Positions 3,371-19,800 of a stretch of DNA of 32,000 bases are shown here, piece by piece (the first letter of the stretch is position 1; the number at the start of each line of letters is the position of its first letter). The stretch comes from Candidatus Saccharimonadota bacterium (GTDB lineage Bacteria; Patescibacteriota; Saccharimonadia; Saccharimonadales; UBA4665): the NCBI GenBank assembly GCA_016699955.1, contig CP064993.1:990001-1022000 (forward strand), given 5' to 3'. Position numbers and translations under genes: made by a program. The notes below the pieces were generated by a model that made no database searches, was not told the origin of the DNA, and saw only the letters and a program-made list of their open reading frames with translations.

Positions 3371-3679
3371 CTACAGCTTTTGACCCGTAGATCCATCGTT
3401 TAAATTAGGAATTTTAGGAATTCCTAGCTCTTGCCTTATGCGCGGAATGTCGGCCGACGATATCTGAGTGCCCGCATATGGATTTTTTTGCCCACCGTAC
3501 GAACCGTCTCTGAAGGCAGCTACTCCACCCTCGTCAGTTGCAAAACCAAATAAACGTAAGTTTAGCCTAAGATCACTATCAGAAATTTCAGCGCCCCCTG
3601 CTGCAATATGACCCATATATCTTTCCTTTCGAGAAATATCGCTTACTCCGGCGTCAGAACCTTGTTCTATGCTAGCCAT
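3371..3679 (-). CDS. Hypothetical protein (102 aa) inserted between rpsJ and rplC
   Basis: It is the only long ORF in the gap. A strong SD (AAGGAG) sits 7 nt before ATG 3679; the ORF track starts 3 nt earlier at GTG 3682. A promoter-like motif lies immediately upstream. I recognise no family. Confidence 0.55.
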
Positions 3680-3708
3680 CACAGTACTCCTTTACGAATA
3701 TGGTTAAT

Positions 3709-3737
3709 ATCTTACCGTATTTTGTTACTTTTGTCAA
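3709..3737 (-). promoter_or_regulatory. Putative promoter TTGACA-17 nt-TAAGAT, starting 1 nt after the rpsJ stop and driving the 102-aa ORF
   Basis: The minus strand reads TAAgTTGACAaaagtaacaaaatacggTAAGATattaacc...AAAGGAGtactgtgATG. Confidence 0.45.
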
Positions 3738-3738
3738 C

Positions 3739-4071
3739 TTACATTTTGATTTCGACGTCGCAGCCGGCAGGAAGTGACAGATTCATGAGGCTGTCGATAG
3801 TCTTTGGAGTCGGATCAAACACGTCTATGAGGCGCTTGTGTACGCGCATTTCAAACTGTTCGCGACCTTTTTTGAAAACGTGCGGACTTTTGACTACTGT
3901 AAATGTGCTTTTGCGCGTAGGCAATGGGATTGGCCCAGCCAGACTCGCGCCCGTGCGCAGTGCGGTGTCGACAATTTGTTTGGCCGCTTGGTCGATGATT
4001 TTGTGGTCATAGGCCTTCAAGCGAATACGGATTCGCTGTTTGCCTGCTTGCGTTTGAGTGGCGTCTGCCAT
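3739..4071 (-). CDS. rpsJ: 30S ribosomal protein S10
   Basis: The 110-aa ORF has [22 protein letters not shown]...GPIPLPT...[23 protein letters not shown], canonical for S10. Confidence 0.96.
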
Positions 4072-4092
4072 AGTAAAAACCTCCGTGTTTTT

Positions 4093-4120
4093 TGGTTATT
4101 AGTTCTAGGTTATAGGTTAT
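4093..4120. repeat. Three copies of GGTTAT (ATAACC on the coding strand) just upstream of the rpsJ SD; two are a tandem 7-mer AGGTTAT
   Basis: Read directly: tGGTTATt at 4093-4100, aGGTTAT at 4107-4113 and aGGTTAT at 4114-4120. The SD GGAGG is at about 4080-4084. Confidence 0.6.
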
Positions 4121-4250
4121 AAGGAAAACCCTTGAGCACTACATCCCTTCTGCAAACGGCCGGCTTCACCCGGCTGGGCCTTGTAACACCTTACGAATTC
4201 ACTTGGGAACGCGCATGGCTTTTAGTCAAAGCTACTGGTTTACGGGTACA

Positions 4251-4278
4251 ATTCTACCATACTTTGAACCATTATCAA
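4251..4278 (-). promoter_or_regulatory. Putative rpsJ promoter TTGATA-16 nt-TGgTAGAAT (extended -10)
   Basis: The minus strand reads TAAtctctgggtTTGATAatggttcaaagtaTGgTAGAATtgtaccc, directly after the stop of the upstream 161-aa ORF. It implies a leader of about 170 nt. Confidence 0.45.
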
Positions 4279-4287
4279 ACCCAGAGA

Positions 4288-4773
4288 TTACTCCGCCCAC
4301 TGCCGACGCTCGTCTAACAACCTCTTATAGGCGCCCGAAGCTGCGGTTCCGACAACGATTGCTCCAGCAAATATTCTTGCCCTAGGCGATAAAAAGACAT
4401 TTGTGATTGCACGCTTGCTTTCCGCCATGTCTTCGATATTGAACGGGAGTGAAGGTGGTATTGTGGCTTTAAGGTGTTTACCGCCTACAAAGGCCTCCAT
4501 TGAAGCATGCGATCTCCCGGTCGTGCCGCGTACAACACGGAGTATCCCCACTAAGCCGGCGATTTCTTCTGATTTGTCTACCAAGTCAGTTTCCCACCAT
4601 AATTCAGGTAGATGCTCCCCTGGCTTATGCAAGTAGACTGCGAACTGTCTTTCTTTTCGTTCAGTCGTCCCGTCCACGATACGATGCACAAATACATCCA
4701 ATATTGATCCGTAGGTATGTTGATAACCCCATATTTCGGGTCCGCCTGGATCTTCTCCGACAACTATAGACAT
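4288..4773 (-). CDS. Hypothetical protein (161 aa from ATG 4773; the ORF track uses TTG 4782) with one C-terminal hydrophobic helix (tail-anchor-like)
   Basis: It is the only long ORF here. The C-terminus ...RARIFAGAIVVGTAASGAYKRLLDERRQWAE is TM-like. It lies 40-50 nt downstream of the J-domain gene. I recognise no family and see no clear SD. Confidence 0.5.
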   Translation of the reverse strand: MSIVVGEDPGGPEIWGYQHTYGSILDVFVHRIVDGTTERKERQFAVYLHKPGEHLPELWWETDLVDKSEEIAGLVGILRVVRGTTGRSHASMEAFVGGKHLKATIPPSLPFNIEDMAESKRAITNVFLSPRARIFAGAIVVGTAASGAYKRLLDERRQWAE

Positions 4774-4822
4774 ATGTGGCAACTATACGTCTGCACGGCT
4801 GCGGTGGCTGTAAGAATATTAA

Positions 4823-5248
4823 CTATTTCGTTCCGTTTGGTCTATAAAATTTTAGTACAGAAGCAGCTTTTTTGTGAAGTGGTTGTTTGACCGTTTTAGC
4901 GGAATATTCGGCGAAGATTGCATCTATGAACTCATCCATTTCGTCATCCGTCATGTCTGTCTCAGCGCCGTCATATGCAACATCGCCGCGGTACTGTACC
5001 GTGCTCGTACCGGTTTGGAAACCATGCATGCTATCGTATGATTTCCTTGTGCGTGGATCTCTAAGTGTTTCGTAGGCTTTGTTGAGCAGCTGCATATGCT
5101 CAAGCGAACCGCCAGCGTCGGGGTGCTGCTGTTTGGCATGATGTATATATGCCTGACGTATATCAGCCGGTAGAGCGTCGGTTTCTAGTCCGAGTATCTC
5201 GTAATAGTCGACAAATCTTTTCGGGGGCGGGTTACTCATGCCATACAT
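4823..5248 (-). CDS. Small stand-alone J-domain (DnaJ-like co-chaperone) protein, 141 aa
   Basis: VDYYEILGLETDALPADIRQAYIHHAKQQHPDAGGSLEHMQLLNKAYETLRDPRTRKSYD is a J-domain with the HPD tripeptide. There is no Gly/Phe or zinc-finger region. An alternative start is ATG 5239 (MSNPPP..). Confidence 0.8.
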   Translation of the reverse strand: MYGMSNPPPKRFVDYYEILGLETDALPADIRQAYIHHAKQQHPDAGGSLEHMQLLNKAYETLRDPRTRKSYDSMHGFQTGTSTVQYRGDVAYDGAETDMTDDEMDEFIDAIFAEYSAKTVKQPLHKKAASVLKFYRPNGTK

Positions 5249-5268
5249 AGTATAGCGTTACTTTTGTT

Positions 5269-5298
5269 AAAGAGAAAAAGCGCTCCGGAGTGGAGCGC
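5269..5298 (-). terminator. Rho-independent terminator downstream of tuf
   Basis: The minus strand has GCGCTCC-actcc-GGAGCGC (7-bp GC stem) followed by TTTTTCTCTTT, about 30 nt after the tuf stop. Confidence 0.7.
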
Positions 5299-5327
5299 CC
5301 TTCTATTTTTGGTCATCCCAAGTAAAA

Positions 5328-6512
<1,185 letters not shown>

Positions 6513-6748
6513 GAGTGACGCTTCGCTTTAATGAGACAAACGTATGCTTTTCTCATCGCTCGGGGCGACGAAATATATCCGTCGTCTCCGGCCGCTCTTT
6601 TCCTGAAAAATCAGGTGAGCAAGCGAACCTTTCTTTATATTAAAAATTATTATTAAAAGTTGTTCACGCGGTCCATATTGCTACACCGTTTGCACGTACT
6701 ACAGCAACGCCCTCACGCGAGATACGCTGTTAAGTATAGGGAAATAAC

Positions 6749-7063
6749 TTATATTTGTAAATCCCCTTCGTAACTTTCTGCACTGGGCTTTGGTTGTATA
6801 CTGACAACGACGGTACATGGTGGTGGCTCTGCAGAATAATCTTTGGCATGGTGCCCAGGGCATTTTGTGTTGCAGGCCGTTGCGACTCTTACTAACAAAG
6901 GGACTCCCGTATCTAGTTCAACTAAATCACTTAGTGCGGCTAAAGTGATAATGCAGACATCCAGCCCCCAGCTACGTTGTTCTAGGTCACACATATCTTG
7001 AACACAGCAGTTTCGGTTAACCACCGTTGTGATGCTAGAACCTTCCGCTAGTCTAAATGCCAT
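6749..7063 (-). CDS. Hypothetical Cys-rich protein (104 aa) between fusA and tuf
   Basis: It is the only ORF of 60 aa or more in this gap, and has 7 Cys (NCCVQDMC, ACNTKCPGHH). There is no convincing SD and I recognise no family. Confidence 0.4.
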   Translation of the reverse strand: MAFRLAEGSSITTVVNRNCCVQDMCDLEQRSWGLDVCIITLAALSDLVELDTGVPLLVRVATACNTKCPGHHAKDYSAEPPPCTVVVSIQPKPSAESYEGDLQI

Positions 7064-7109
7064 TACCGATAATCTCTGGAGAAGGTTGCTTCAAGCTGCT
7101 TTATAGTTG

Positions 7110-7526
7110 CTATTCATATTTTAATTTGAGGTCAAGTTTGTCTGCTATCTGAAATATCCACTTCTCCATGCGGTCTTGCTGATGATCGCGCGCTAGGTTC
7201 TCCTGCATAATCTCTTCGATACGTTTCATATGGCCATCGAGTACGCCATAAATATGATCAAGTTTTTTATCGATCTTATCAAAGCGCTGATCGTGTTCTT
7301 CGAGCTTATCTTCTACTCTAAACAAACGTGCGTCCAGATTATCTAGGCGTTTATCGACGCCGTCTAGGCGCTTGTCGACGCCGTCTAGGCGCTTGTCGAC
7401 GCCGTCTAGGCGCTTGTCGACGCCGTCTATGCGCTTGTCGACGCCGTCAAACCTATCAGATACCATCTGAGACAAATCAGCTATAGCTGAAAACACATCG
7501 TCGAGATCGGTTGGCTTGTTTACCAT
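7110..7526 (-). CDS. Hypothetical coiled-coil protein (138 aa) with tandem heptad repeats DGVDKR(L/I)
   Basis: RFDGVDKRIDGVDKRLDGVDKRLDGVDKRLDGVDKRLDNLDARLFRVEDKLEEHDQRFDKIDKKLD has heptad periodicity. It starts 18 nt after the fusA stop. Confidence 0.65.
   Translation of the reverse strand: MVNKPTDLDDVFSAIADLSQMVSDRFDGVDKRIDGVDKRLDGVDKRLDGVDKRLDGVDKRLDNLDARLFRVEDKLEEHDQRFDKIDKKLDHIYGVLDGHMKRIEEIMQENLARDHQQDRMEKWIFQIADKLDLKLKYE
7342..7446. repeat. Five tandem copies of a 21-bp unit (tctaggcgcttgtcgacgccg), in frame inside the 138-aa ORF
   Basis: Read directly. Copies 2-4 (7363-7425) are identical, copy 1 has 2 substitutions and copy 5 has 1. Confidence 0.92.
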
Positions 7527-7544: not shown

Positions 7545-9632
7545 CTACTTACTGTTTTTGGCGATGATGGCTTCGGCGACGTTGTTTGGTACGTCTGCGT
7601 AGTGAGCAAGTTCCATACTGGAACTGGCACGACCTTGGCTCATAGAGCGCAGGTTGGTTGTGTAACCAAACATCTCACCAAGCGGTACAAATGCTGTTAT
7701 TTCTTTTATGCCCGATGAAAGGTCTTCCATGGACTCAATCCGACCGCGTTTGCTGTTTAAGTCTCCAATAACATCACCCATAAACTCTTCAGGGGTGACA
7801 ACAACGACTTTCATGACTGGCTCCAGTAGCACTGGATTTGCTCTTTTAAAGCCTTCCTGGAAACCCATGCTACCAGCGATGCTAAAGGCCATTTCGCTTG
7901 AGTCAACTTCATGGTAGCTGCCATCGTAAAGCTCTACTTTTACGTCGACTACTGGGTAACCGGCGAGGACACCGTTGCCGAGTGCTTCTTCGATGCCTTT
8001 GCGGACTGCCGATATGTATTCGCTTGGTACAACACCGCCCTTAATAGAGTTGATAAACTCAAAACCAGCACCTTGTTCGTTTTGACTTAGGCGAAGCCAA
8101 ACGTCACCGTACTGACCGCGACCACCGCTTTGACGGACAAATTTGCCTTGCGCTTCGACGGCATCTTTACGAATAGTTTCTCGGTAAGCAACCTGTGGCT
8201 GGCCAATGTTCGCTTCAACGCTAAACTCGCGCTTCATACGATCAACCAAGATTTCAAGGTGAAGTTCACCCATACCAGAAATGATGGTTTGGCCGGTTTC
8301 ATCGTCGACACGGACACGGAAGGTAGGGTCTTCTTCGGCCAAGCGCTGAAGTGCGAGGCTCATTTTTTCTTGGTCGGCCTTAGTTTTTGGCTCTATGGCA
8401 ATAGACACCGGTGGCTCTGGGAAGGTAATGTTTTCGAGCTGAATGGGGTGCACTGGGTCACAAAGTGTGTTTCCTGTTGTTGTACCCTTGAGCCCCACAA
8501 TGGCGGCAATGTCACCTGCGACAACTTCTGTCACGTCTTCACGTTTGTCTGCCTGCATACGGACAATACGGCCGACGCGTTCTTTCTCACCCGTTGAGCT
8601 GTTTAGCACATACGAACCAGCCTGCAAAGTTCCCGAGTAAACACGGAAGTAGGCAAGTTTACCGACAAATGGGTCGGTTGTGATTTTGAAAGCAAGGCCG
8701 GCAAGCGGTTCGCTGGCGTCGTGTTTGCGCTCTATTTCATCACCAGTTTTGGGATGTACGCCCCAGGTGTTGCTACAATCGCTTGGCGCTGGCAGGTAAT
8801 CGTTTACCATGTCCAGCACTTTTTCGACTATAACGCCACGGCCATCACCGCCAGTGACTGCGTAGAACTTGCTACTGAGGACTGCGCTGCGAATGGCTTG
8901 TTTAACATCGGCCACAGTAAGCCCCTCTTCGCCCACCTCAAAGTATTTTTCGAGCATGGCTTCGTCTTCGGCCACAGCGTTTTCGATGAGCAGGCTGCGG
9001 TATTTCTTGACCTGTTCCATCATGTCAGCCGGTATGTCACCCTCAACGAGCTCATGGTCGTGGAACTCTGTATAGGTGTAGGCCTTCATTGAAACGAGAT
9101 CTACGACACCATTGATGCTTTGTTCAAAACCAATCGGCAAGTGAACGGGAAATGCACGCTTGCTCAAACGGTTGTGAATACTTTCGAGCGACTTGTAAAA
9201 ATCGCCACCAGTTTGGTTGATTTTGTTGATAAAACATATACGAGGCACGCCGTATTTGTCGGCTTGACGCCACACGGTTTCACTTTGGCTTTCGACACCC
9301 ATTTTGCCGTCGAATACTACACAAGCGCCATCAAGGACTCGGAGTGAGCGCTCCACCTCGGCCGTAAAGTCAATGTGGCCAGGTGTATCGATAATATTTA
9401 TCTGCTTACCCTGCCAGAAACAGGTCACGGCAGCCGAAACAATGGTAATACCACGCTCGCGCTCCTGCTCCATCCAGTCAGTAGTCGTTCCACCCTCGTG
9501 AACAGCACCGATTTTGTGCTTTAGGCCAGTTCGGTACAAAATACCTTCGGTCGTGGTTGTTTTACCCGCGTCAATATGGGCAATAATGCCAATGTTGCGG
9601 ATGTCCTTCATTTCTACTTTCTTATCTGCCAT
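7545..9632 (-). CDS. fusA: Translation elongation factor G
   Basis: The 695-aa ORF has AHIDAGKTTTTE, DTPGHIDF and NKIN motifs, plus EF-G domains through the C-terminus. Confidence 0.98.
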   Translation of the reverse strand: MADKKVEMKDIRNIGIIAHIDAGKTTTTEGILYRTGLKHKIGAVHEGGTTTDWMEQERERGITIVSAAVTCFWQGKQINIIDTPGHIDFTAEVERSLRVLDGACVVFDGKMGVESQSETVWRQADKYGVPRICFINKINQTGGDFYKSLESIHNRLSKRAFPVHLPIGFEQSINGVVDLVSMKAYTYTEFHDHELVEGDIPADMMEQVKKYRSLLIENAVAEDEAMLEKYFEVGEEGLTVADVKQAIRSAVLSSKFYAVTGGDGRGVIVEKVLDMVNDYLPAPSDCSNTWGVHPKTGDEIERKHDASEPLAGLAFKITTDPFVGKLAYFRVYSGTLQAGSYVLNSSTGEKERVGRIVRMQADKREDVTEVVAGDIAAIVGLKGTTTGNTLCDPVHPIQLENITFPEPPVSIAIEPKTKADQEKMSLALQRLAEEDPTFRVRVDDETGQTIISGMGELHLEILVDRMKREFSVEANIGQPQVAYRETIRKDAVEAQGKFVRQSGGRGQYGDVWLRLSQNEQGAGFEFINSIKGGVVPSEYISAVRKGIEEALGNGVLAGYPVVDVKVELYDGSYHEVDSSEMAFSIAGSMGFQEGFKRANPVLLEPVMKVVVVTPEEFMGDVIGDLNSKRGRIESMEDLSSGIKEITAFVPLGEMFGYTTNLRSMSQGRASSSMELAHYADVPNNVAEAIIAKNSK

Positions 9633-9673
9633 GTGATCCTCGCTCTGCTATTAATTACAGCTTTATAAGTTGG

Positions 9674-10207
9674 TTATTTTCTACGGTCAATTAATCCAAG
9701 CGCTCCTAAAACTTTGTGAAATGGGCCTATGCTTGGTGTTTCCGATACTTCCACTTTAGGGTCTCGCGCTTGAACCCAAGGTGTTTCTGCTCGCTTAATT
9801 TCATTTTGGAATATATCTACCCAAGGAGCCTTCGGAAAATCATCTACAGCATCTTTCAGCGTATTGACCCAAGTATTGCCTGTAATGACATCACCAAGTC
9901 GCTTAAGCCATGCAGCATCACGAGGGTTTGTTAAATTTCCAAGGTCGTCATATTGACGGTCGGCGCCCGAACCGTCGCATATAGTCATAGGCCAGCTATT
10001 CACAGTCTCGTTCCATGAATAGACGTCCCAGAACCTTGCTGATGTTATGAAACCTTCCCTTTTTACAATCCTGCTTTCGGCATCAGGGTCCTCGACGTCA
10101 ACAACTCCTGACGGGTATCCATCGAGTGTTTCAAATGCTATAGAGGTTTTTCCACATACTTCAGGATCTGCACAAACGAATCGAAGTGGGCATTCTGGGC
10201 GCGCCAT
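9674..10207 (-). CDS. Hypothetical protein (177 aa) inserted between rpsG and fusA
   Basis: It is the only long same-strand ORF in the gap. Its ATG lies 6 nt after the rpsG stop, with GAGG inside the rpsG 3' end. It is Trp-rich with Cys at positions 6, 12, 18 and 77. I recognise no family. Confidence 0.55.
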   Translation of the reverse strand: MARPECPLRFVCADPEVCGKTSIAFETLDGYPSGVVDVEDPDAESRIVKREGFITSARFWDVYSWNETVNSWPMTICDGSGADRQYDDLGNLTNPRDAAWLKRLGDVITGNTWVNTLKDAVDDFPKAPWVDIFQNEIKRAETPWVQARDPKVEVSETPSIGPFHKVLGALGLIDRRK

Positions 10208-10213
10208 GACGTG

Positions 10214-10693
10214 TTAGCCTCGGGCGAAGTGAGCAAATGCTCGGTTAGCTTCAGCCATGCGGTGGGTTTCTTCACGCTTTTTAACGGCGTTGCCTTGGTT
10301 GTTGTAGGCATCCATAAGTTCTAAAGCAATACGGTCAGCCATACTCATACCCTTGCGGCTGCGGCAAGCGGCTACAAACCACATAGTAGTTAGGTGGTTT
10401 TGGCGCTGGCCTTTGACTTCAAATGGAATCTGGTAATTGGCACCACCGACGCGGCGAGAACGAGTTTCGACACTTGGGCGGACATTGCCAAATGCTTGGT
10501 CAAAAACCTCTAGTGGGTTTTCGACCTTTAGCTTGTCGGCGGCTTTTTGCATACCTTCGTAGACCAAGCGCTCAGCAACTTGTTTTTTGCCGTCGCGCAT
10601 GACACGGTTTATTAGCCGCTGAACGGCTACACTGTTGTACACGCGGTCGGCCGGGATGTCCCGTACTAGTGAGGCGGTAACTTTTCTAGGCAT
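10214..10693 (-). CDS. rpsG: 30S ribosomal protein S7
   Basis: The 159-aa ORF has MPRK...GKK..AERLVY and RRVGGANYQIP, both S7 motifs. Confidence 0.97.
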   Translation of the reverse strand: MPRKVTASLVRDIPADRVYNSVAVQRLINRVMRDGKKQVAERLVYEGMQKAADKLKVENPLEVFDQAFGNVRPSVETRSRRVGGANYQIPFEVKGQRQNHLTTMWFVAACRSRKGMSMADRIALELMDAYNNQGNAVKKREETHRMAEANRAFAHFARG

Positions 10694-11001
10694 TATAAAT
10701 TCCTCCCTGCCATCTGAAGAGCATTAGCTATCTCATGAACCGTTCCTGGCCTTCCAGCCGCTCCCCTGGGTGTGAATCTACCGCCAGCATTTAATGTGGC
10801 AATCCGAGCTAATGCTTCTTGGCTAGAGTCACTGAGTATTCCGAATGTCTCCCTCAAACAGGCCCCCCCAGCAGGCAATGAAACAATCGCCGCAGCTACT
10901 AATAAATCATGGCAATCAACCTTAGGATTCGTGCGAGAATACATGTAACATTTTTCACCCACGCAATTGGGAGTCCGACCTCTCATTACCCAAGTGCTCA
11001 T
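10693..11001 (-). CDS. Hypothetical protein (102 aa) fused between rpsL and rpsG by overlapping stop/start codons
   Basis: Its ATG overlaps the rpsL TAA (TAATG) and its TAA overlaps the rpsG ATG (TAATG). AAGGAG in the last rpsL codons lies 8 nt upstream, and its own last codons carry the rpsG SD (GGGAGG). No competing ORF of 60 aa or more is present on either strand. Confidence 0.55.
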   Translation of the reverse strand: MSTWVMRGRTPNCVGEKCYMYSRTNPKVDCHDLLVAAAIVSLPAGGACLRETFGILSDSSQEALARIATLNAGGRFTPRGAAGRPGTVHEIANALQMAGRNL

Positions 11002-11414
11002 TATTTGCTCTCCTTTTTAGCACCGTACTTGCTACGGCCTTGTTTGCGGTTTTGAACGCCCTGAAGGTCGAGTGTGCCACGTACAATGTGATAGCGCACA
11101 CCTGGAAGGTCTTTGACTCGGCCGCCACGGATCATTACAACAGCATGTTCCTGAAGGTTGTGGCCTTCACCGCCAATGTATGCCCAAACTTCGTAACCGT
11201 TCCCAAGGCGCACGCGGGCTACCTTGCGAAGGGCTGAGTTTGGTTTCTTAGGTGTTTTGGTCGTGACTTTTACGCACACTCCGCGCTTAAACGGCGCAGG
11301 TTTTTCGTAGCTTTTAGTCTTTAGGTTGTTGGTAACGCGCATGAGCGCCGGTGATTTTGTTTTGCTGGTCACCTTAGTACGCGGTTTGCGTACCAATTGA
11401 TTGATTGTAGGCAA
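11001..11414 (-). CDS. rpsL: 30S ribosomal protein S12
   Basis: Starting at TTG 11414 gives (M)[11 protein letters not shown].., the canonical S12 N-terminus, and [11 protein letters not shown] is present. The ORF-track start at GTG 11447 would add 11 non-homologous residues. Confidence 0.95.
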
Positions 11415-11531
11415 AGTATGCCCCTTCCCGAGACTACAGGGTCTCACTTATATTCGCTGAAGAGAATTTTCTCCTCTACCGCCAAGATCTGCACATACCG
11501 CAGACCAGCTCGAATTTGATATGACTGAAAC

Positions 11532-11560
11532 ATTGTAACAGATATGGCAAAGTCTGACAA
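11532..11560 (-). promoter_or_regulatory. Putative str-cluster promoter TTGTCA-17 nt-TGtTACAAT (extended -10)
   Basis: The minus strand reads gggTTGTCAgactttgccatatcTGtTACAATgtttcag, about 110 nt upstream of the rpsL start. Confidence 0.5.
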
Positions 11561-11613
11561 CCCGCGTGGGCGTAATACTTATCGACAACTGTGCTACACT
11601 AAAAACTATTGAG

Positions 11614-12933
11614 ATGAAGAACAATACTCGTACACTCGCTGTCGTTGGGCTCGGCTACGTTGGGCTGCCGCTGGCAGTCGAAGCAGCTCTAAAGGGCTAC
11701 ACGGTTACCGGCATAGATATAAATAAAAGCCTTTTACGTCTTGTAGATGCACGAACCTCGCCTTATGCCAACGACACGCGTTTTGAGAAAGCACTTGCCC
11801 GGGTTGCACCGAAGCAGCTTGTCACCACAACAGATTATTCGGCGCTCCAGAGTGTAGAGACAATAATTATATGTGTCCCAACGCCAACCGAGCACAACGT
11901 GCCAGATTTAAGCCTGATTGAAATCGCTTCAAAAAGCGTGGCTGCTCAGTTACAGAAAGGCCAACTGATTGTTCTTGAGAGCACCGTAAACCCAGGCGTG
12001 ACACGAGACGTTGTGCTGCCAATTATCGAAAAGGCATCTGGCCTTGTGGTGGGCCGAGATTTTTACCTGGCTCATTGCCCCGAGCGAATCGACCCGGGCA
12101 ACCCGCAGTACTACGTCGGCAACCTAAACCGAGTTGTTGGCGGTGTTACGCCAGCCTGCACAAAAAAAGCTGTGGCATTTTACAAAAGCATCATTGACGC
12201 CAAAATTATTCCGCTTGGGTCGGCCGAAGAAGCTGAATTTGTCAAATCGTGGGAAAACACACAGCGCAATGTCATGATAGCCATGGCAAATAGTGCGGCA
12301 ATCATCTGCGATGCAGTCGGTATGGATGTTCAGCGCGTACGGGAAGGGTTGCAGTCAAAAGTTGACCAGTTTGGCCTTAAATTAGCCGTCCCAGGCATCG
12401 GTCCCGGCGGCCACTGTATACCAGAAGATATTCACTACGTTATCAAGCGCGCCCGAGAAAGTGGCATAGATACACGTTTCTTAGACGATGCGGCCGAGCT
12501 CAACGACCGCATGCCAAAGTACGCGGTACGGCGACTAAGTGGCCTCGTAAAAGCCCATGGTGAAAACCTGCGCGATCTACGCGTTGCCTTGCTAGGTTTG
12601 GCGTACAAGCCAGACATAGCAGACACGCGCAAATCCGCTGCAATTGAAGCTGGCTTTGTCTTGCAGCGCTACGCCGGATCCGTTACGGCCTATGATCCTT
12701 ACGTTGTCGATTCTTCACTCGTTCGTCCGTTTGAACTTTCAAAATCGCTCGAAAGTGCTTTGCGTAGTTCCGATGTGGTATTTATAGCCACAGCACACTC
12801 TGAGTTTGAGAAAATTCTCACTCCAGCTCTTCTAAAAAAACATCATGTTCGGTATGTGCTAGATGGACGTAATATTCTAGATAAATCGGCTATAGAAAAA
12901 GCCGGCATTGCCTACCGCGGCATTGGCCGATAG
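11614..12933 (+). CDS. Nucleotide-sugar dehydrogenase of the UDP-glucose/GDP-mannose dehydrogenase family (UDP-ManNAc/UDP-GlcNAc dehydrogenase-like)
   Basis: It has the N-terminal Rossmann motif VVGLGYVGLPLA and the catalytic-Cys motif GGHCIPED. ATG 11614 (MKNNTRTLAVVG) is preferred over the ORF-track GTG 11566. Confidence 0.85.
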   Translation: MKNNTRTLAVVGLGYVGLPLAVEAALKGYTVTGIDINKSLLRLVDARTSPYANDTRFEKALARVAPKQLVTTTDYSALQSVETIIICVPTPTEHNVPDLSLIEIASKSVAAQLQKGQLIVLESTVNPGVTRDVVLPIIEKASGLVVGRDFYLAHCPERIDPGNPQYYVGNLNRVVGGVTPACTKKAVAFYKSIIDAKIIPLGSAEEAEFVKSWENTQRNVMIAMANSAAIICDAVGMDVQRVREGLQSKVDQFGLKLAVPGIGPGGHCIPEDIHYVIKRARESGIDTRFLDDAAELNDRMPKYAVRRLSGLVKAHGENLRDLRVALLGLAYKPDIADTRKSAAIEAGFVLQRYAGSVTAYDPYVVDSSLVRPFELSKSLESALRSSDVVFIATAHSEFEKILTPALLKKHHVRYVLDGRNILDKSAIEKAGIAYRGIGR

Positions 12934-13041: not shown

Positions 13042-16000
13042 TTAGCCTTCGGCGCGGAAGGTTTGGTCGTTGTGGTATTCTTCGACCACATCATCGCCTT
13101 CGTCGAGGGCATTGCTCGCTCCGTAGCCTGTGCCAACAGGGATCTTGCGACCGAGTATGACATTTTCCTTCAGACCGAATAGCTTATCGACTCGGCCACT
13201 TGTGGCAGCCCCTATAAGTACACGAGTTGTGTCCTGGAAGCTTGCCGCACTGAGGAAGGAGTCGGTCGAGAGTGAAGCCTTGGTAATCCCAAGTAAGAGT
13301 TGGTTTACTTTTGCTGGTTGCTTACCATCGGCTACAAGAGCCTCGTTGGCTTCGGCAACCGCAAGTTTGCTTACAACATCACCCGTCACGAACTCGCTGT
13401 CACCAGCGTCTTCTACTTGAACACGGCTAAACATTTGACGCACAATTATTTCAAGGTGCTTGTCTGAGATGTTTTGACCCTGCCCGGCGAAAATACCAAG
13501 AATCTCGTTCATGATATAGCGCTGCGTCGACTCTACGCCTTGCAACCTTACAAGGTCATGCAGGTTAATAGACCCATTCGTCAAACGCTGACCAGCTACA
13601 ACAACGTCGCCGTCTTGTACGAGTAGCTGCTTAAAGCCAGGAATTTCGTAGCGAACAACACTTTTACTCGTTGGAGTAATGATGACTGACTTGTCGGTTA
13701 GCTCAGCCTTGCCAGCCATCGGTGATACAAGTGGTTCTGCACCGTCGCTTTGGCTGGCGAGAACATCTCCAATCGCAACATCGCTACCGCTCGCAATTTT
13801 TGCAGTCCGGCCTTCGAGGGCGAGTTCAAGATTCTCCCTGTCGTTGGCGGTAACTTGTACAATGTAGCGTTCGCCTTCTTCCCACGCGTTGACAACACCA
13901 TTGATGTCTGCCAAATATGCCTGACCCTTCGGTGAACGAGCTTCAAAAAGCTCTTCCACGCGTGACAGACCTTGCGCCGTATCGTCGGCAACAACTGCAC
14001 CGGAACGGTGCTTTGAGTCAAGCGAAAGCTGCGTGCCTGGTTCGCCAATACTTTGAGCAGCTATGACACCAATTGGATTATGGCTAGTAACGAGGTTGCC
14101 GGTTGCCGGATCTACGCCGTAACTTTTCTGCGGTACGCCATGGACTGATGTCGCACTGAGTGCACTACGTATTTTTATGCCGTCAAGTTTTTCATCGGCA
14201 TCGATGGCTTCGGCGGTAGCTTTTGTAAACAGTTCACCTGATTTTATGTGTCCTTTTACGTCTTCGGCTGCAAACCGACCTTCAAGTCGCGATGCATAGG
14301 AAACGCCAATAGCTGCTGCGTCCGCACGAAGCATTGAAAACCCAGGGTCTGCGGCATCATCGCCGTCGTCGTCAATGGTAAAGACGTCTTGAGAAACGTC
14401 AACCAAGCGACGCGTGAGATAGCCAGCATCGGCTGTCTTCAAGGCAATGTCAATCACGGCCTTACGAGTACCGCGAGTACCAGTAAAGTACTCGAGTGGT
14501 GTCAGACCTTGCATGTAGCCAGCCTTAACCGGCAGCTCAATAACATGGCCAGCGGCATCTTGGAAAACACCGAGCATACCGACAGACATTTTCATCTGCG
14601 AAATATTACCGCGGGCACCAGAGGTAATGGCAATTGCCATTGGACCGTCCTGGTCTCGCATTTGTTCAGCCAGCATGTTTTGGACGCGAGTATCTATTTT
14701 GGTCCAGTTTTCAACAGTCAAACGGTGGCGTTCATCATCAGTAATGAAGCCCTGTTCAAACTGTTCAGATATACCAGCACTTCGGGTTTCGCCTTCGCTC
14801 AAAGTTTCTTGGAGTCCTTCGATTGGTTCAAAGTCGCCCATGCCCATGCTAAGCCCAGAAAGCGTCGCATAACGGAATCCGAGGTCTTTCAAGTTGTCAG
14901 CAATTTCAGCCGTTTTTTCTTGACCGTACTGCGCGTAAACCGCAGCCATGACTTTTTGCAAACGCTTTTTCGTCATTGCTTCGTCTTGGTAAGCGAAGTC
15001 ATCTGGGAAAATTTCGTTGAAATACATGCGGCCAAGTGTTGTTTCGCGAAGTTCTCCGCGGAAAGGTGCCAGCACTCGACTTTGCAAAGTGACAACTCCT
15101 GCGTCAAATGCCATTGATGCCTCGTTAAGACTTGAGAATACTCTTGGCTTCTGCTGTTCCCCAGGACGCTCATAGGTCAAGTAGTAACAGCCGAGCACAA
15201 TATCCTGCTCAATGTGCAAAATAGGCGAGCCGTCGGCTGGTTTAAGCAAGTTTCGATTGGCCGACATAATATCTCGCGCTTCGTGCTGAGCGGCATCTGA
15301 CAACGGCAGATGAACTGCCATTTGGTCACCGTCAAAGTCAGCGTTAAAGCCCTTACAAACCAGCGGGTGGAGCTGAATAGCCCGACCTTCAATTAAAACT
15401 GGCTGAAAAGCTTGAATACTCAAGCGGTGCAGCGATGGAGCACGGTTCAAAAGAACGTATTTTCCAGTGATGACTTCGTCAAGCGCGTCCCAGACTTCGG
15501 TTTCACCCGTTTCGATCATGCGAGTCGCACTTCGTATGTTGTGAGCCTGTTCTCGGAAGATAAGCTCGCCGATCACAAATGGTTTAAACAGTTCAAGGGC
15601 CATCATTTTCGGTAAGCCACACTGGTTAATTTTAAGCTCTGGTCCAGCAACAATCACCGACCGGCCAGAGTAATCAACTCGCTTTCCGAGGAGGTTCTGG
15701 CGGAAACGACCCTGCTTTCCTTTCAGCATGTCACTGAGGCTTTTCAGGCGACGGCGCTGGCCGGTAGCAGCGACAGCACGGCCACTGCGAGCGTTGTTGT
15801 TGTCGATGAGTGCGTCAACCGCCTCCTGTAGCATGCGTTGCTCATTGCGACGGATGACTTCAGGGGCATTGAGCTCCATGAGCTTTTTCAGCCTGTTATT
15901 GCGGTTTATGACGCGGCGATAGAGGTCGTTTAAGTCGCTGGTTGCGAATCGACCACCTGTCAGCTGCACCATCGGGCGCAAGTCTGGAGGAATAACCGGT

Positions 16001-16893
16001 AAAATACTAAGACACATGCTTTCTGGTTTAATACCGGCACGTTCCATGCTTTCGAGCAAACGCAGGCGCTTCATTAGCTTCTTCTTGCGTTGACCCTTGG
16101 CTTCTTCGGCTTCTTTAGTTAGGTCAGCGATAAGCTGGACGAGGTCAATGTCTTCCAGCATCTCACGAAGTGCAGCACCACCCATGCCAACTGTAACCAT
16201 GTCGCGTAAATCACGTGGCAGGTTGCGGTAATCGTTCTCGTTCATGAGGTTTAGCTTAACCAAACTGTCTAACTGACTTTTGAGCAGTTCCCAGTCTTTA
16301 TCGAGTTCTTCTAACTCTTTGGTTTGTGCTTCGGCAAGCGCTTTAACGTTGGCATCCTCTGCCTCGGCTTCTTTTTCGTAGCGTAGTTTAATTGCTTGCT
16401 GGCCAGCTTGCCACTCAGCTTCTTTGTCACTGCGGTATTGGTCGCGCAACGGCACATTGACACTTTTTACAATGTACGCTGCAAAGTATGCCACGCGTTC
16501 GAGGCTTTTTACTGTCATGCCCAGTAGCAGTCCAATCGCACTTGGCGTACCGCGTAGGAACCAGATGTGTGCTACTGGCACCGCCAAGTTAATATGACCC
16601 ATGCGTTCGCGTCGCACAATGCTCCTGGTTACAAGTTCGCCGTTTTTATCAACAGCGGCTTCACGCGAGCGGACACCCTTGTATTTGGCATCATGAGGAT
16701 TAATGTCTTTGACAGGACCAAAAATGCGCTCACAGAACAGTCCATCGCGCTCCGGTTTTTGGGTTCGATAGTTTATGGTCTCAGGTTTTAAAACCTCACC
16801 GTAACTCCAGTCTTCAATGTCTTTACTACTGGCGACAGCCAGGCGCACTGCATCAAAATCTGCTATGTTAGTGCCGTATGAATAGCGTCGCAT
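13042..16893 (-). CDS. rpoC: DNA-directed RNA polymerase subunit beta-prime (1283 aa)
   Basis: The NADFDGDQ catalytic motif, bridge helix and trigger loop are present. ATG 16893 (MRRYSYGTNIADFDAVRLAVAS) lies 1 nt after the rpoB stop with GGAGG upstream. The ORF-track start 16950 lies inside rpoB. Confidence 0.97.
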   Translation of the reverse strand: MRRYSYGTNIADFDAVRLAVASSKDIEDWSYGEVLKPETINYRTQKPERDGLFCERIFGPVKDINPHDAKYKGVRSREAAVDKNGELVTRSIVRRERMGHINLAVPVAHIWFLRGTPSAIGLLLGMTVKSLERVAYFAAYIVKSVNVPLRDQYRSDKEAEWQAGQQAIKLRYEKEAEAEDANVKALAEAQTKELEELDKDWELLKSQLDSLVKLNLMNENDYRNLPRDLRDMVTVGMGGAALREMLEDIDLVQLIADLTKEAEEAKGQRKKKLMKRLRLLESMERAGIKPESMCLSILPVIPPDLRPMVQLTGGRFATSDLNDLYRRVINRNNRLKKLMELNAPEVIRRNEQRMLQEAVDALIDNNNARSGRAVAATGQRRRLKSLSDMLKGKQGRFRQNLLGKRVDYSGRSVIVAGPELKINQCGLPKMMALELFKPFVIGELIFREQAHNIRSATRMIETGETEVWDALDEVITGKYVLLNRAPSLHRLSIQAFQPVLIEGRAIQLHPLVCKGFNADFDGDQMAVHLPLSDAAQHEARDIMSANRNLLKPADGSPILHIEQDIVLGCYYLTYERPGEQQKPRVFSSLNEASMAFDAGVVTLQSRVLAPFRGELRETTLGRMYFNEIFPDDFAYQDEAMTKKRLQKVMAAVYAQYGQEKTAEIADNLKDLGFRYATLSGLSMGMGDFEPIEGLQETLSEGETRSAGISEQFEQGFITDDERHRLTVENWTKIDTRVQNMLAEQMRDQDGPMAIAITSGARGNISQMKMSVGMLGVFQDAAGHVIELPVKAGYMQGLTPLEYFTGTRGTRKAVIDIALKTADAGYLTRRLVDVSQDVFTIDDDGDDAADPGFSMLRADAAAIGVSYASRLEGRFAAEDVKGHIKSGELFTKATAEAIDADEKLDGIKIRSALSATSVHGVPQKSYGVDPATGNLVTSHNPIGVIAAQSIGEPGTQLSLDSKHRSGAVVADDTAQGLSRVEELFEARSPKGQAYLADINGVVNAWEEGERYIVQVTANDRENLELALEGRTAKIASGSDVAIGDVLASQSDGAEPLVSPMAGKAELTDKSVIITPTSKSVVRYEIPGFKQLLVQDGDVVVAGQRLTNGSINLHDLVRLQGVESTQRYIMNEILGIFAGQGQNISDKHLEIIVRQMFSRVQVEDAGDSEFVTGDVVSKLAVAEANEALVADGKQPAKVNQLLLGITKASLSTDSFLSAASFQDTTRVLIGAATSGRVDKLFGLKENVILGRKIPVGTGYGASNALDEGDDVVEEYHNDQTFRAEG

Positions 16894-16894
16894 A

Positions 16895-19800
16895 TTAAGC
16901 CTCCTCTCCTTTTTCATCAGTAATGTCATCGATGTCATTTGAGTTTGCAACTACCATAGCAGCGGCTTCTTCGTCAAAATCAGTTACAATTGGGCTGCCT
17001 TGGCCGTCTTCAAATTCAAATCCTTGAGCGGCAGCTTCTTCGCTTGTCACGTCAATGTCGGAAATAGCCGATGTTGGCGCTTCGACGATGGCCGGATGAG
17101 TTGCTTCCTCATGGATATTTGTGGCAAGAACAGCTTCGGCATCGACCAACTGGTCTGAGGCGACAAGATCAACTTTAAGACCAAGGCCTTGCAGCTCTTT
17201 AACTAGCACGTTGAAGCTTTCAGGAACTTTTGGACCGACAATTTCGGTCTTTTTAATGATGGCTTCGTAGGCTTTACTACGGCCATATACATCGTCTGAC
17301 TTGATTGTCAACATTTCTTGCAGAGTGTACGCTGCGCCGTAAGCTTCCAGCGCCCAGACTTCCATTTCACCAAATCGTTGGCCACCGTTTTGTGCCTTAC
17401 CGCCAAGTGGTTGTTGAGTAACCATAGTGTAAGGACCAGTGCTGCGAGCGTGAATCTTATCAGCAACCATATGGTTGAGCTTAATCATGTACATACTGCC
17501 CACGGTCGTTCGCTCTTTGAAGGCGCCACCGGTGCGACCATCGTACAGCTGCTGCTTACCGTCTTCCGGGAAGCCAGCGTCTTTAAGCATAGACTGAATC
17601 TTATTCATCGGTACGCCGTTAAAGCTTGGGCTTGCCACTTTCATGCCAAGGGCGCGAGCGGCCATACCAAGGTGCGTTTCAAACAACTGGCCAATATTCA
17701 TACGACTTGGCACGCCCAGTGGGTTAAGGACTATTTCTACTGGCGTTCCGTCTTCCATGAATGGCATGTCTTCGACGGGCAATATGCGGGCTATAACACC
17801 CTTGTTACCGTGCCGTCCTCCAAGTTTGTCGCCAACGCTGATTTTGCGCATTTGAGCCACAAAAACCTGGATTTGCATAAGAACACCAGCCTTCAGTTCA
17901 TGTCCGTTTTCACGGCTAAAGACTTTGACGCCCACAACTTTACCATGTTTGCCGTTGCTCATTCGCTGAGAAGTATCACGGACTTCTTTTGCTTTTTCAC
18001 CAAATATTGCCCGAAGTAGTCGTTCTTCGCTGCTTAGTTCTTGCTCACCTTTTGGCGTAATTTTTCCAACCAATATGTCGCCAGGATGAACCTCGGCGCC
18101 AATACGAACAATACCATCGTCGTCGAGGTGGCGAAGCGCTTCCTCGCTAACATTTGGGATATCTCGCGTGACAATTTCTGGTCCTAGTTTTGTTTCGCGG
18201 ACTTCAATCATGTAGTCGACAATATGGACACTTGTCAAAGTGTCGTCTTCAACCAACTTGCGGCTAATGATGATAGCGTCTTCGAAGTTGTATCCTGCCC
18301 ATGGCATAAATGCCACAATCAAATCCTTACCAAGCGCGAGTTCGCCGCCCTGGATGCTCATGCCCTCAATCAGTGGATCGCCGGTTTTTACCGTATCTCC
18401 AGTAGAAACAACGACGTGTTGGTTTATGCTGGTACCTTCGTTGGAGCGCACAAAATGCTCTGCGTCATAGGTGACGTTGCCTTCTTTGTATTTCACAACA
18501 ACCTGGTCGGCGTTGGCTTTTAGGACCTCGCCCGTACCTTCTGCGATAACTAGTTGCCCGGTATTTGCGGCGGCAGCAGCCTCTACGCCCGTACCAACAA
18601 TTGGACTCTCTGGCGCTATCAGTGGCACTGCCTGACGCTGCTGGTTACTACCCATTAGCGCACGGTAGACGTAGTTTTTTTCAATAAACGGAATGAGACC
18701 GGCACTGCTACCGATAATCTGGTTTTGGGCAGCGTCAATGTGTGTAACATCTTCTCTGTCAACTGTGGCTGACTTTAGGCCATCACGCGCACTGACACGC
18801 TCTTCGACAATTTTGCCTGTTTTGTCCAGCTTAACACCCGCACCGGCGATAACCGCATGTTCTTCAGCAGCAGCGTCAAGGTAGACAATTTCATCAGTCA
18901 GTTTACTGTCCACCACTTTGCGGTAGGGTGTTTCAATAAATCCATAGTCGTTTATACGGGCAAAATTCGCGAGATTAAGGACTAACCCCACGTTTGCGCC
19001 TTCAGGAGTTTCCACCGCACATATGCGACCGTAGTGAGTCGCGTGGGCATCACGAACTTCAAAACCAGCACGTTCACGGCTGAGGCCACCTGGCCCCATA
19101 GAGCTAAGGCGTCGTTTGTGAGCCAGTTCAGACAGCGGATTGATTTGATCCATAAACTGCGAAAGCTGTGAGCTCGCAAAAAACTCACGCACAGCAGCCA
19201 CGACAGGACGAGCATTTATAAGCTGGCCCGGCTGGACTGTTTCGATTTCGCTCATACTCATACGATCTTGGGTGTTACGTACCATGCGCAGCAGGCCAAT
19301 CCGGAACTGACGCTGTACCAACTCTCCAACCATTTTGATACGGCGATTGCTTAGTGAATCAATATCATCGCCTGGTTCCTGTGTGACATTCATGCGTATT
19401 AGCTCAGCGATAATAGCCACGAGGTCTTCAAGGCGCATAATCCGGTTTTCGGCCGTATTTGCCACATCTAAATGAAGTCGTTGGTTAATTTTGTAACGGC
19501 CAACGCGTGAGAAGTCAAAACGCTTAAAGTTGTAGAACATGTTTTCAAGCAAACTGCGAGCATTGTCGACAGTTGCTAGATCGCCCGGACGAAGCCTGCG
19601 GTAAACTTCAATTAGTGCTTCGGCGTGTCCTTTGCTTGGGTCTTTGTCGAGTGTTGACTGCAAAAAACTATCTTTTGCCTGATCAACGTTTTTAAACGCC
19701 TCTTTCATGGTTGCTTCAGTCATACCCAGCGCGCGCAGCAGAGTCGTTACTGGGATCTTACGCTTACGATCAATCTTGACATACAGCGCACCGTTTGCGG

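Follow-up and report, generated by a model that had tools for sequence, protein, structure and literature searches.

In Escherichia coli, the spacer between rpsL and rpsG, the genes for ribosomal proteins S12 and S7, is a non-coding structured RNA of about 100 nt that is bound by S7 and acts as a translational operator. In Bacillus subtilis, ybxF, which encodes an L7Ae-like protein of a conserved and recognisable family, lies at the head of the str operon, upstream of rpsL. Phage morons bring their own promoter and terminator, and the Cys-containing ribosomal proteins bL31, bL33, bL36 and uS14 are conserved families with two CxxC knuckles. Here, we describe a locus that resembles each of these systems in part: a 102-codon open reading frame (ORF), referred to as orfX, that lies between rpsL and rpsG of a Candidatus Saccharimonadota bacterium (assembly GCA_016699955.1, contig CP064993.1, positions 990,001 to 1,022,000 of the forward strand). 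This 32,000-nt stretch is called the window, and coordinates refer to it unless one of the related loci, labelled L001-L085, is named. Gene identities were taken from the list of open reading frames together with Pfam.

On balance, we lean towards orfX being a real, translated and lineage-specific gene for an accessory small protein, which would have arisen by a precise 308-nt insertion at the ancestral TAATG overlap of rpsL and rpsG.

Results

Architecture of the rpsL-orfX-rpsG segment

The gene order on the minus strand of the window, obtained from the ORF list and Pfam, is rpsL, orfX, rpsG, orfY and fusA. orfX (10693-11001, minus strand) starts with ATG and encodes a 102-aa orphan protein with a pI of 9.2 and Cys at residues 13, 18, 30 and 48. 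Inspection of the sequence confirmed what the original prediction, an earlier reading of the same DNA, had reported, namely an ORF with four Cys that is joined to both neighbours by TAATG; the strand is the minus strand. At the first junction (10999-11003), the rpsL stop codon TAA (11003-11001) shares its last base with the orfX ATG (11001-10999), and at the second junction (10691-10695), the orfX stop codon TAA (10695-10693) shares its last base with the rpsG ATG (10693-10691). The Shine-Dalgarno (SD) motifs were likewise found where they had been described: AAGGAG (11010-11015) lies in the final rpsL codons, 8 nt before the orfX ATG, and GGGAGG (10702-10707) lies in the final orfX codons, 8 nt before the rpsG ATG.

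Comparison with related loci pointed to the origin of this arrangement. In the contigs that carry homologues of orfY (L081, L083/L084 and L085), rpsL and rpsG share a single TAATG and are followed by the orfY homologue and then by fusA. L081, L083 and L085 carry ...AAGGAGAGCAAATAATGCC... with rpsG starting there, and the direct rpsL/rpsG overlap is also present in L084, L001, L002, L005 and L006. The AAGGAG motif directly precedes rpsG in L081, L083, L085, L001, L002, L005 and L006. The alignment shows exactly 308 additional nt in the window. They follow the ancestral ...AAGGAGAGCAAATAATG and close with another TAATG, so that the two junctions form the left and right boundaries of the additional sequence and a 5-bp direct repeat. 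By this alignment, orfX was inserted precisely behind the site at which rpsG ancestrally started. Because rpsG of the relatives starts at the same site, the ATG and SD of orfX are the former rpsG initiation site, and from this position we can soundly infer that orfX would be translated at S7-like rates.

The original prediction had proposed obligatory translational coupling at ribosomal-protein levels. The coupling architecture is real and uses the ancestral rpsG start codon and SD, but the word 'obligatory' could not be upheld, since the closest relatives do not have the ORF. For the same reason, orfX is not a conserved component of the ribosome and the coupling is not obligatory for the biology of the lineage. 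A conserved ribosomal protein or known translation factor was accordingly rejected as an identity for orfX, given that it has no family match and no homologues and that L081, L083, L084, L085, L001, L002, L005 and L006 are without the ORF.

Several other identities and origins of the insert were also rejected. An RNA element, such as a ribosomal-protein leader or S7 operator, gave no Rfam match at E <= 1 over 9500-11700, and the minimum free energy of the transcript had a z-score of +1.73, with 97 of 100 shuffles folding at least as well. A recognisable mobile element (an insertion sequence or a miniature inverted-repeat transposable element) was rejected because the ends of the insert have no inverted repeat and only the 5-bp TAATG direct repeat. 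No second copy of the insert was detected in the 32-kb window or the 85 loci, and no phage or plasmid match was obtained. The region scanned for terminator-like sites, including the insert, contained none on the minus strand, and a single weak promoter-like match (9/12) is located inside orfX at 10802-10775. A duplicated rpsL 3' end was considered as the general source of the downstream SD but does not explain the window, where 10 of 24 positions were identical compared with a control mean of 8.9. Such a duplication is clear only in L051 (18/24 identical, with a perfect 15-nt repeat) and is partial in L007, L003 and L062. A perfect direct repeat of the rpsL 3' end, AAGGAGAGCAAGTAA(TG), flanks the slot-1 insert of L051 (L051:2681-2890) and looks like a duplication made at insertion.

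Recurrent ORFs between rpsL and rpsG in Saccharibacteria

A genome scan with S7 yielded 80 species representatives of Saccharibacteria. The distance between rpsL and rpsG in these 80 loci was bimodal, ranging from -1 to 9 nt in 53 loci and from 45 to 329 nt in 27, and 20 of the 22 gaps of at least 150 nt were filled to at least 95% by a forward ORF. We define slot-1 ORFs here as ORFs of the rpsL-rpsG interval, on the strand of these two genes, that begin on the rpsL stop codon or at most 6 nt from it, end at the rpsG ATG or at most 10 nt from it, and contain a GGAG-type SD for rpsG in their last codons. orfX shows all of these features. An ATG placed on the rpsL stop codon begins 16 slot-1 ORFs (the 106-nt insert of L012 included), and most slot-1 ORFs end at or just inside rpsG. 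Moreover, a GGAG-type motif is present 7-12 nt before the rpsG ATG in all inserts of at least 150 nt, and a GGAG-like motif occurs at a like distance in nearly every relative that bears an insert.

In many loci, the conserved start of rpsG (ATG CCN AGR/CGT AAA) contains stops at +7 and +10 in the other frames, and an open frame running into rpsG will therefore usually end within 10 nt of its start. The position of the orfX end at the rpsG start is therefore less special than it appears, and the signal lies in the stop-free run rather than in the exact end point. After removal of one near-duplicate, 19 of the 21 inserts of at least 150 nt were stop-free in the forward direction, whereas shuffles predicted 1.28 and the reverse strand gave 5. 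The original prediction had pointed to the reading frames of relatives as a check on orfX; these frames are open, though the sequences are unrelated.

These counts bear on the possibility that the insert is non-coding, that is, a 308-nt spacer or a decayed mobile or foreign fragment that contains an ORF by chance, with rpsG using its own SD. This explanation accommodates the lack of orfX homologues and of any match in the protein collection, the poor coding score of orfX (both described below), and the good SD that rpsG possesses. However, an open frame across 100 codons survived in only 51 of 20,000 mononucleotide shuffles of the insert (p ~0.003), and the other five frames of the insert contain 3-9 stops each. 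In addition, the ORF starts where rpsG ancestrally started, a proven strong site, so that ribosomes would enter it regardless. The insert also shows no RNA family, excess structure or terminal inverted repeats, and the window contains it only once. Together, the ancestral initiation site and the 19 independent open inserts make a purely non-coding insert unlikely, and we consider it very improbable.

The contents of the slot are highly diverse. An all-against-all BLASTP comparison of 82 slot ORFs, taken from the rpsL-rpsG junction and from the rpsG-fusA junction (slot 2), resolved them into 74 components, of which 66 were singletons, and tblastx added no relative for orfX among the slot ORFs. 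The flanking genes are 80-95% identical at the protein level, against extreme diversity among the slot-1 ORFs. For L020, public data list the slot-1 ORF as a called gene, and it too is a singleton, indicating that orphan status is normal for slot 1. On a tree built from S12, S7 and EF-G, the presence or absence of an insert requires at least 15 changes among 61 taxa, and the tree neighbours of the window have either no insert or a different occupant. It looks as though new small proteins have landed at the rpsL/rpsG junction repeatedly.

Homology between slot-1 ORFs was detected for L003 and L080, the products of which are two-transmembrane-like peptides (33% identity, E 1e-6). The occupants of slot 1 in the clade of the window (L003:3813-4001, L080:3783-4001 and L007:3831-4001) are small, hydrophobic and two-transmembrane-like, with Lys-rich tails, and slot 1 of L080 apparently holds two such ORFs in tandem.

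The rpsG-fusA junction, coding signals and a four-Cys subclass

The junction on the other side of rpsG is variable as well. In 66 of 76 loci, at least 100 nt separate rpsG from fusA, and this slot usually holds an ORF of 70-145 aa that begins 2-6 nt past the rpsG stop codon. In the window, the occupant is orfY (9674-10207, minus strand), which starts 6 nt past the rpsG stop codon and encodes a 177-aa protein with no Pfam match or other family match. Homologues of orfY were found at 80, 67 and 57% identity, and each of them lies in the rpsG-fusA interval. Its dN/dS is 0.15-0.40, compared with 0.04-0.08 for S7, and its Cys residues (C6, C12, C18 and C77) are all invariant; orfY is under purifying selection. 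An AlphaFold2 model of orfY from a 4-sequence alignment had a mean predicted local distance difference test score (pLDDT) of 40.9 and was unusable.

Only two family matches were obtained among the slot-2 ORFs, in L007 and L080 (23S-rRNA-intervening-sequence / four-helix-bundle). In these nearer relatives of the window, the rpsG-fusA slot carries a 121-aa PF05635 protein (L007:4521-4883 and L080:4526-4888, E 1.8e-36), and L003 seems to retain a remnant of a slot-2 protein of this type (tblastx E 1.5e-16).

As a set, the slot ORFs are protein-coding. The frequency of G in slot-1 ORFs was 0.40 at codon position 1 and 0.17-0.19 at positions 2 and 3, matching slot-2 ORFs and S7, and the amino-acid composition of their products is protein-like. 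Third-position GC of slot ORFs was 0.36-0.38, compared with 0.52 for S7. The only close pair of slot-1 ORFs, L028 and L029, showed a dN/dS of 0.107 (12 nucleotide and 3 amino-acid differences). The slot ORFs of L001-L080 are acidic and Lys-poor (K 3.2-3.6%, compared with 6.6% in window proteins), orfX being an exception with its basic pI.

Cys makes up 2-2.5% of slot-1 ORF products, compared with a background of 0.35% in window proteins, and the Cys counts of slot ORFs are bimodal (0-1 or 4-5). Exactly four Cys were present in 22 slot-2 ORFs, compared with 8 expected. We refer to slot ORFs with 4-5 Cys, the first two of which form C-x(2-7)-C within the first 30 residues, as the Cys4 subclass. 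The N-terminal C-x(2-7)-C was found in 6 of 21 slot-1 ORFs, compared with 1.4 expected by shuffles (p ~0.001), and in 28 of 59 slot-2 ORFs, compared with 5.1 expected (p <0.0002). The corresponding pair in orfX, Cys13-x4-Cys18, is encoded at 10948-10965, and C30 and C48 complete the layout.

These patterns raise the question of whether orfX and the other Cys4 slot proteins are dedicated translation factors, that is, small zinc-binding proteins that sit on the 30S subunit or EF-G near S12/S7 and are kept stoichiometric by coupling, with a possible role in modulating decoding or guarding against ribosome-targeting host compounds. The location between the genes for S12, S7 and EF-G with 1:1 coupling would suit such a role, as would the recurrence of the Cys4 pattern in both slots flanking rpsG, and the invariant Cys and purifying selection of orfY. 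Several small bacterial ribosomal proteins are four-Cys zinc ribbons, which also counts in its favour. A ribosome partner would, however, be expected to be conserved, whereas slot-1 ORFs are species-specific and are absent in about two-thirds of species and in the closest relatives. Furthermore, many slot ORFs are without Cys or are membrane-like, and no similarity to any ribosomal or EF-G-binding protein was found. We regard this explanation as improbable.

The main rival explanation is that the insert is translated but its peptide is functionless, selection keeping only the stop-free frame and the 3' SD and TAATG; ribosomes would reach rpsG, the operon would be spared polarity, and the sequence would otherwise drift. 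The slot-1 set as a whole speaks on both sides. On the one hand, the ORFs are extremely diverse between well-conserved flanks, the inserts conserve only the GGAG motif, its spacing and the ATG at their 3' ends, and the Cys content is close to that of translated random sequence. On the other hand, the strong codon-position periodicity and protein-like composition of the set, the low dN/dS of the single close pair and the homology kept between L003 and L080 point to selection on the peptides, and bimodal Cys counts with a positioned N-terminal Cys pair are unexpected under drift.

Homology, codon usage and structure prediction of orfX

For the most part, the observations on orfX itself weigh against the explanation that we favour. 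No orfX homologue was found in a word-indexed search of 5.8 billion clustered proteins. An exhaustive phmmer (HMMER) search over 1.84 billion representatives also gave no homologue, the only two matches being long repeat proteins; one of these was inspected and proved to be an insect-cuticle-like repeat. Scans of metagenomes with peptide patterns or a degenerate DNA pattern revealed no relatives, and neither did searches of viral contigs, phages (tblastn), plasmids (blastn) and PDB sequences. An exact-sequence look-up was negative, and tblastn, tblastx and blastn against the 85 related loci and the rest of the window detected no relative. No Pfam, NCBIfam, PADLOC or PHROG family matched orfX. 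The PADLOC search, which addressed anti-phage defence and toxin-antitoxin systems, gave no match for orfX or orfY. The original prediction had asked whether homologues always lie between rpsL and rpsG; across these searches, there were no homologues at all.

The lack of a homologue means that a direct selection test on orfX is not possible. In addition, the protein collection contains orfY of this genome but gave no self-match for orfX; the gene caller behind the collection probably skipped orfX. Its membership of the Cys4 subclass is by pattern alone, as phmmer and a small C-x4-C profile, run against all slot ORFs, showed no homology to any of them. Moreover, random translation of DNA of about 50% GC gives about 3% Cys, so four Cys in one ORF are not significant alone.

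Codon usage was evaluated with a model trained on 19 window genes, and log-likelihoods were compared with those of 102-codon chunks and wrong frames. orfX scored -0.223 bits/codon, below every 102-codon chunk of known window genes (minimum -0.021) and within the wrong-frame distribution (mean -0.48, sd 0.22), and one antisense frame scored about equally (-0.201). GC by codon position was 0.50/0.55/0.40, unlike the host pattern of 0.61/0.39/0.48. In favour of coding, G at codon position 1 was 0.38, near the 0.40 of the slot-1 set. A single-sequence AlphaFold2 model of orfX, of low confidence (pLDDT 52.7), has a beta-hairpin at residues 12-20, and a Foldseek search against PDB found no structural neighbour of the model (best E 2.7).

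Non-native codon usage, together with absence from the nearest relatives, which shows that orfX is dispensable, is what a translated but functionless peptide would predict. The coding signals of the slot-1 set argue against that explanation generally but do not settle the case of orfX, whose codon usage is poor. We consider a functionless peptide rather unlikely, though it deserves more weight than the other alternatives.

Other features of the window

rpsG (10214-10693, minus strand) encodes a 159-aa S7 (PF00177, E 2.5e-53), and rpsL (11001-11414, minus strand) encodes a 137-aa S12 (PF00164, E 4e-36) from a probable TTG start. The longest ORF call for rpsL reaches an upstream GTG at 11447. 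The TTG at 11412-11414 is most likely the start, because S12 of the relatives begins at the equivalent codon, which is ATG or GTG there; the region in the window reads CAT ACT TTG CCT ACA ATC. A candidate sigma-70-like promoter, so called from its consensus match only (TTGTCA-17-TACAAT with TG, 10/12 matches), is located upstream of rpsL at 11532-11560 on the minus strand. The fusA gene for EF-G (7545-9632, minus strand) was identified from the ORF list, and EF-G domains were found on the homologous genes in L083 and L085.

Further extra ORFs are interleaved with the str/S10 cluster at 3371-7526 on the minus strand. The fusA-tuf interval holds a coiled-coil protein of 138 aa in which DGVDKRL is repeated five times (7110-7526) and a 104-aa ORF that is Cys-rich and of no family (6749-7063), the tuf-rpsJ interval a 141-aa DnaJ-domain protein (4823-5248) and a 164-aa unknown protein (4288-4782), and the rpsJ-rplC interval a 103-aa unknown protein (3371-3682), all on the minus strand. 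Unknown ORFs also occupy the fusA-tuf interval of L083 and L085.

Between rpoC (13042-16950) and rpsL, a UDP-glucose/GDP-mannose dehydrogenase gene lies on the opposite strand (11566-12933, plus strand). The same interval contains an IS1595-family transposase in L083 and L084 and a CdiI_N-like immunity protein in L081, and the rpoC-rpsL junction is therefore variable too. The longest-ORF call of rpoC (TTG start at 16950) and rpoB (end at 16895) overlap by 56 nt (16895-16950, minus strand), which is probably an over-extension of the rpoC start rather than a real overlap.

Discussion

The account that we favour, in which orfX is an accessory gene gained by insertion, can be set out as a series of steps. 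Ribosomes that end rpsL, or that bind AAGGAG in its last codons, would start at the former rpsG ATG, a site that serves as the rpsG start in the relatives. They would then read 102 codons of new sequence and terminate on the re-created TAATG, and the GGGAGG placed 8 nt upstream would allow them to be handed to rpsG, so that expression of the essential S7 and EF-G would be preserved. An insertion would be viable only past the rpsG start codon, with its frame open and the hand-over to rpsG rebuilt. In Saccharibacteria, both junctions flanking rpsG are filled repeatedly by unrelated small ORFs (35-180 aa) that change, through evolution or turnover, much faster than the genes beside them, and orfX is one such occupant.

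We infer that orfX may adopt a small metal-binding fold, with zinc as the probable metal. A small metal-binding accessory protein is favoured over a core ribosomal component, since the slot contents are species-specific and often absent. Hypervariability at the species level argues for a dispensable or fast-adapting accessory role that makes use of strong constitutive expression of the str operon.

A broader model, which we put forward as doubtful, is that the rpsL/rpsG TAATG overlap and the rpsG-fusA junction of Saccharibacteria are hotspots of gene birth or gene capture. DNA arriving past the rpsG start would be translated at ribosomal-protein levels and kept only if it is open and the hand-over is rebuilt, and selection would turn some of these ORFs into species-specific four-Cys metalloproteins, with orfX as a young example; a subset of the slot proteins might act on the ribosome or EF-G.

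No description of the rpsL-rpsG or rpsG-fusA slots was found in the literature searched. Each ingredient is known by itself, be it an orphan small gene, translational coupling or an accessory gene in a ribosomal operon. What appears to be new is that unrelated ORFs recurrently use the rpsL/rpsG overlap with nucleotide precision, and that a Cys4 subclass flanks rpsG. If the account is correct, a reduced-genome episymbiont has an essential and deeply conserved operon that not only tolerates unrelated small genes at a single nucleotide-precise site but gains them there repeatedly. It would then offer a natural system for studying the way in which new genes come to be expressed from a proven initiation site that they have taken over, the limits that translational coupling sets on insertions, and the roles of the many unannotated small proteins of candidate-phyla-radiation (CPR) bacteria. 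For orfX alone, as one species-specific orphan, the stakes are modest. For annotation, slot ORFs match no family and may escape gene callers, and the 'spacers' of about 300 nt in the str operons of Saccharibacteria should not be counted as non-coding.

As in the E. coli str operon, the rpsL-rpsG interval and coupling to upstream translation would govern translation of rpsG. Unlike in E. coli, the interval here is an open frame with no excess structure and no Rfam match, and the nearest relatives are without it. Like ybxF of B. subtilis, orfX is a small, non-universal protein gene co-transcribed with rpsL-rpsG-fusA, but it matches no family, is unique to one genome and lies inside the rpsL/rpsG overlap. 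It shares with the four-Cys zinc-ribbon ribosomal proteins a small size, a basic character, four Cys and a place in a ribosomal operon, and differs from them in its C-x4-C with two isolated Cys and in the lack of a sequence or fold match. The 23S rRNA intervening-sequence proteins (PF05635 / TIGR02436) are likewise products of small genes lodged in genes or operons of the translation apparatus, here in the rpsG-fusA slot of L007 and L080; they have no similarity to orfX or orfY, and the L007 and L080 copies are set off by spacers of about 45 nt rather than by overlaps. Finally, the slots resemble phage morons in that one junction between conserved neighbours holds unrelated small genes or none, with a patchy distribution on the tree, and in that third-position GC of the slot ORFs is below that of the flanking genes (0.38 vs 0.52). 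In contrast to morons, the slot inserts have no promoter or terminator of their own; they appropriate the initiation site that lies upstream and restore the one that lies downstream.

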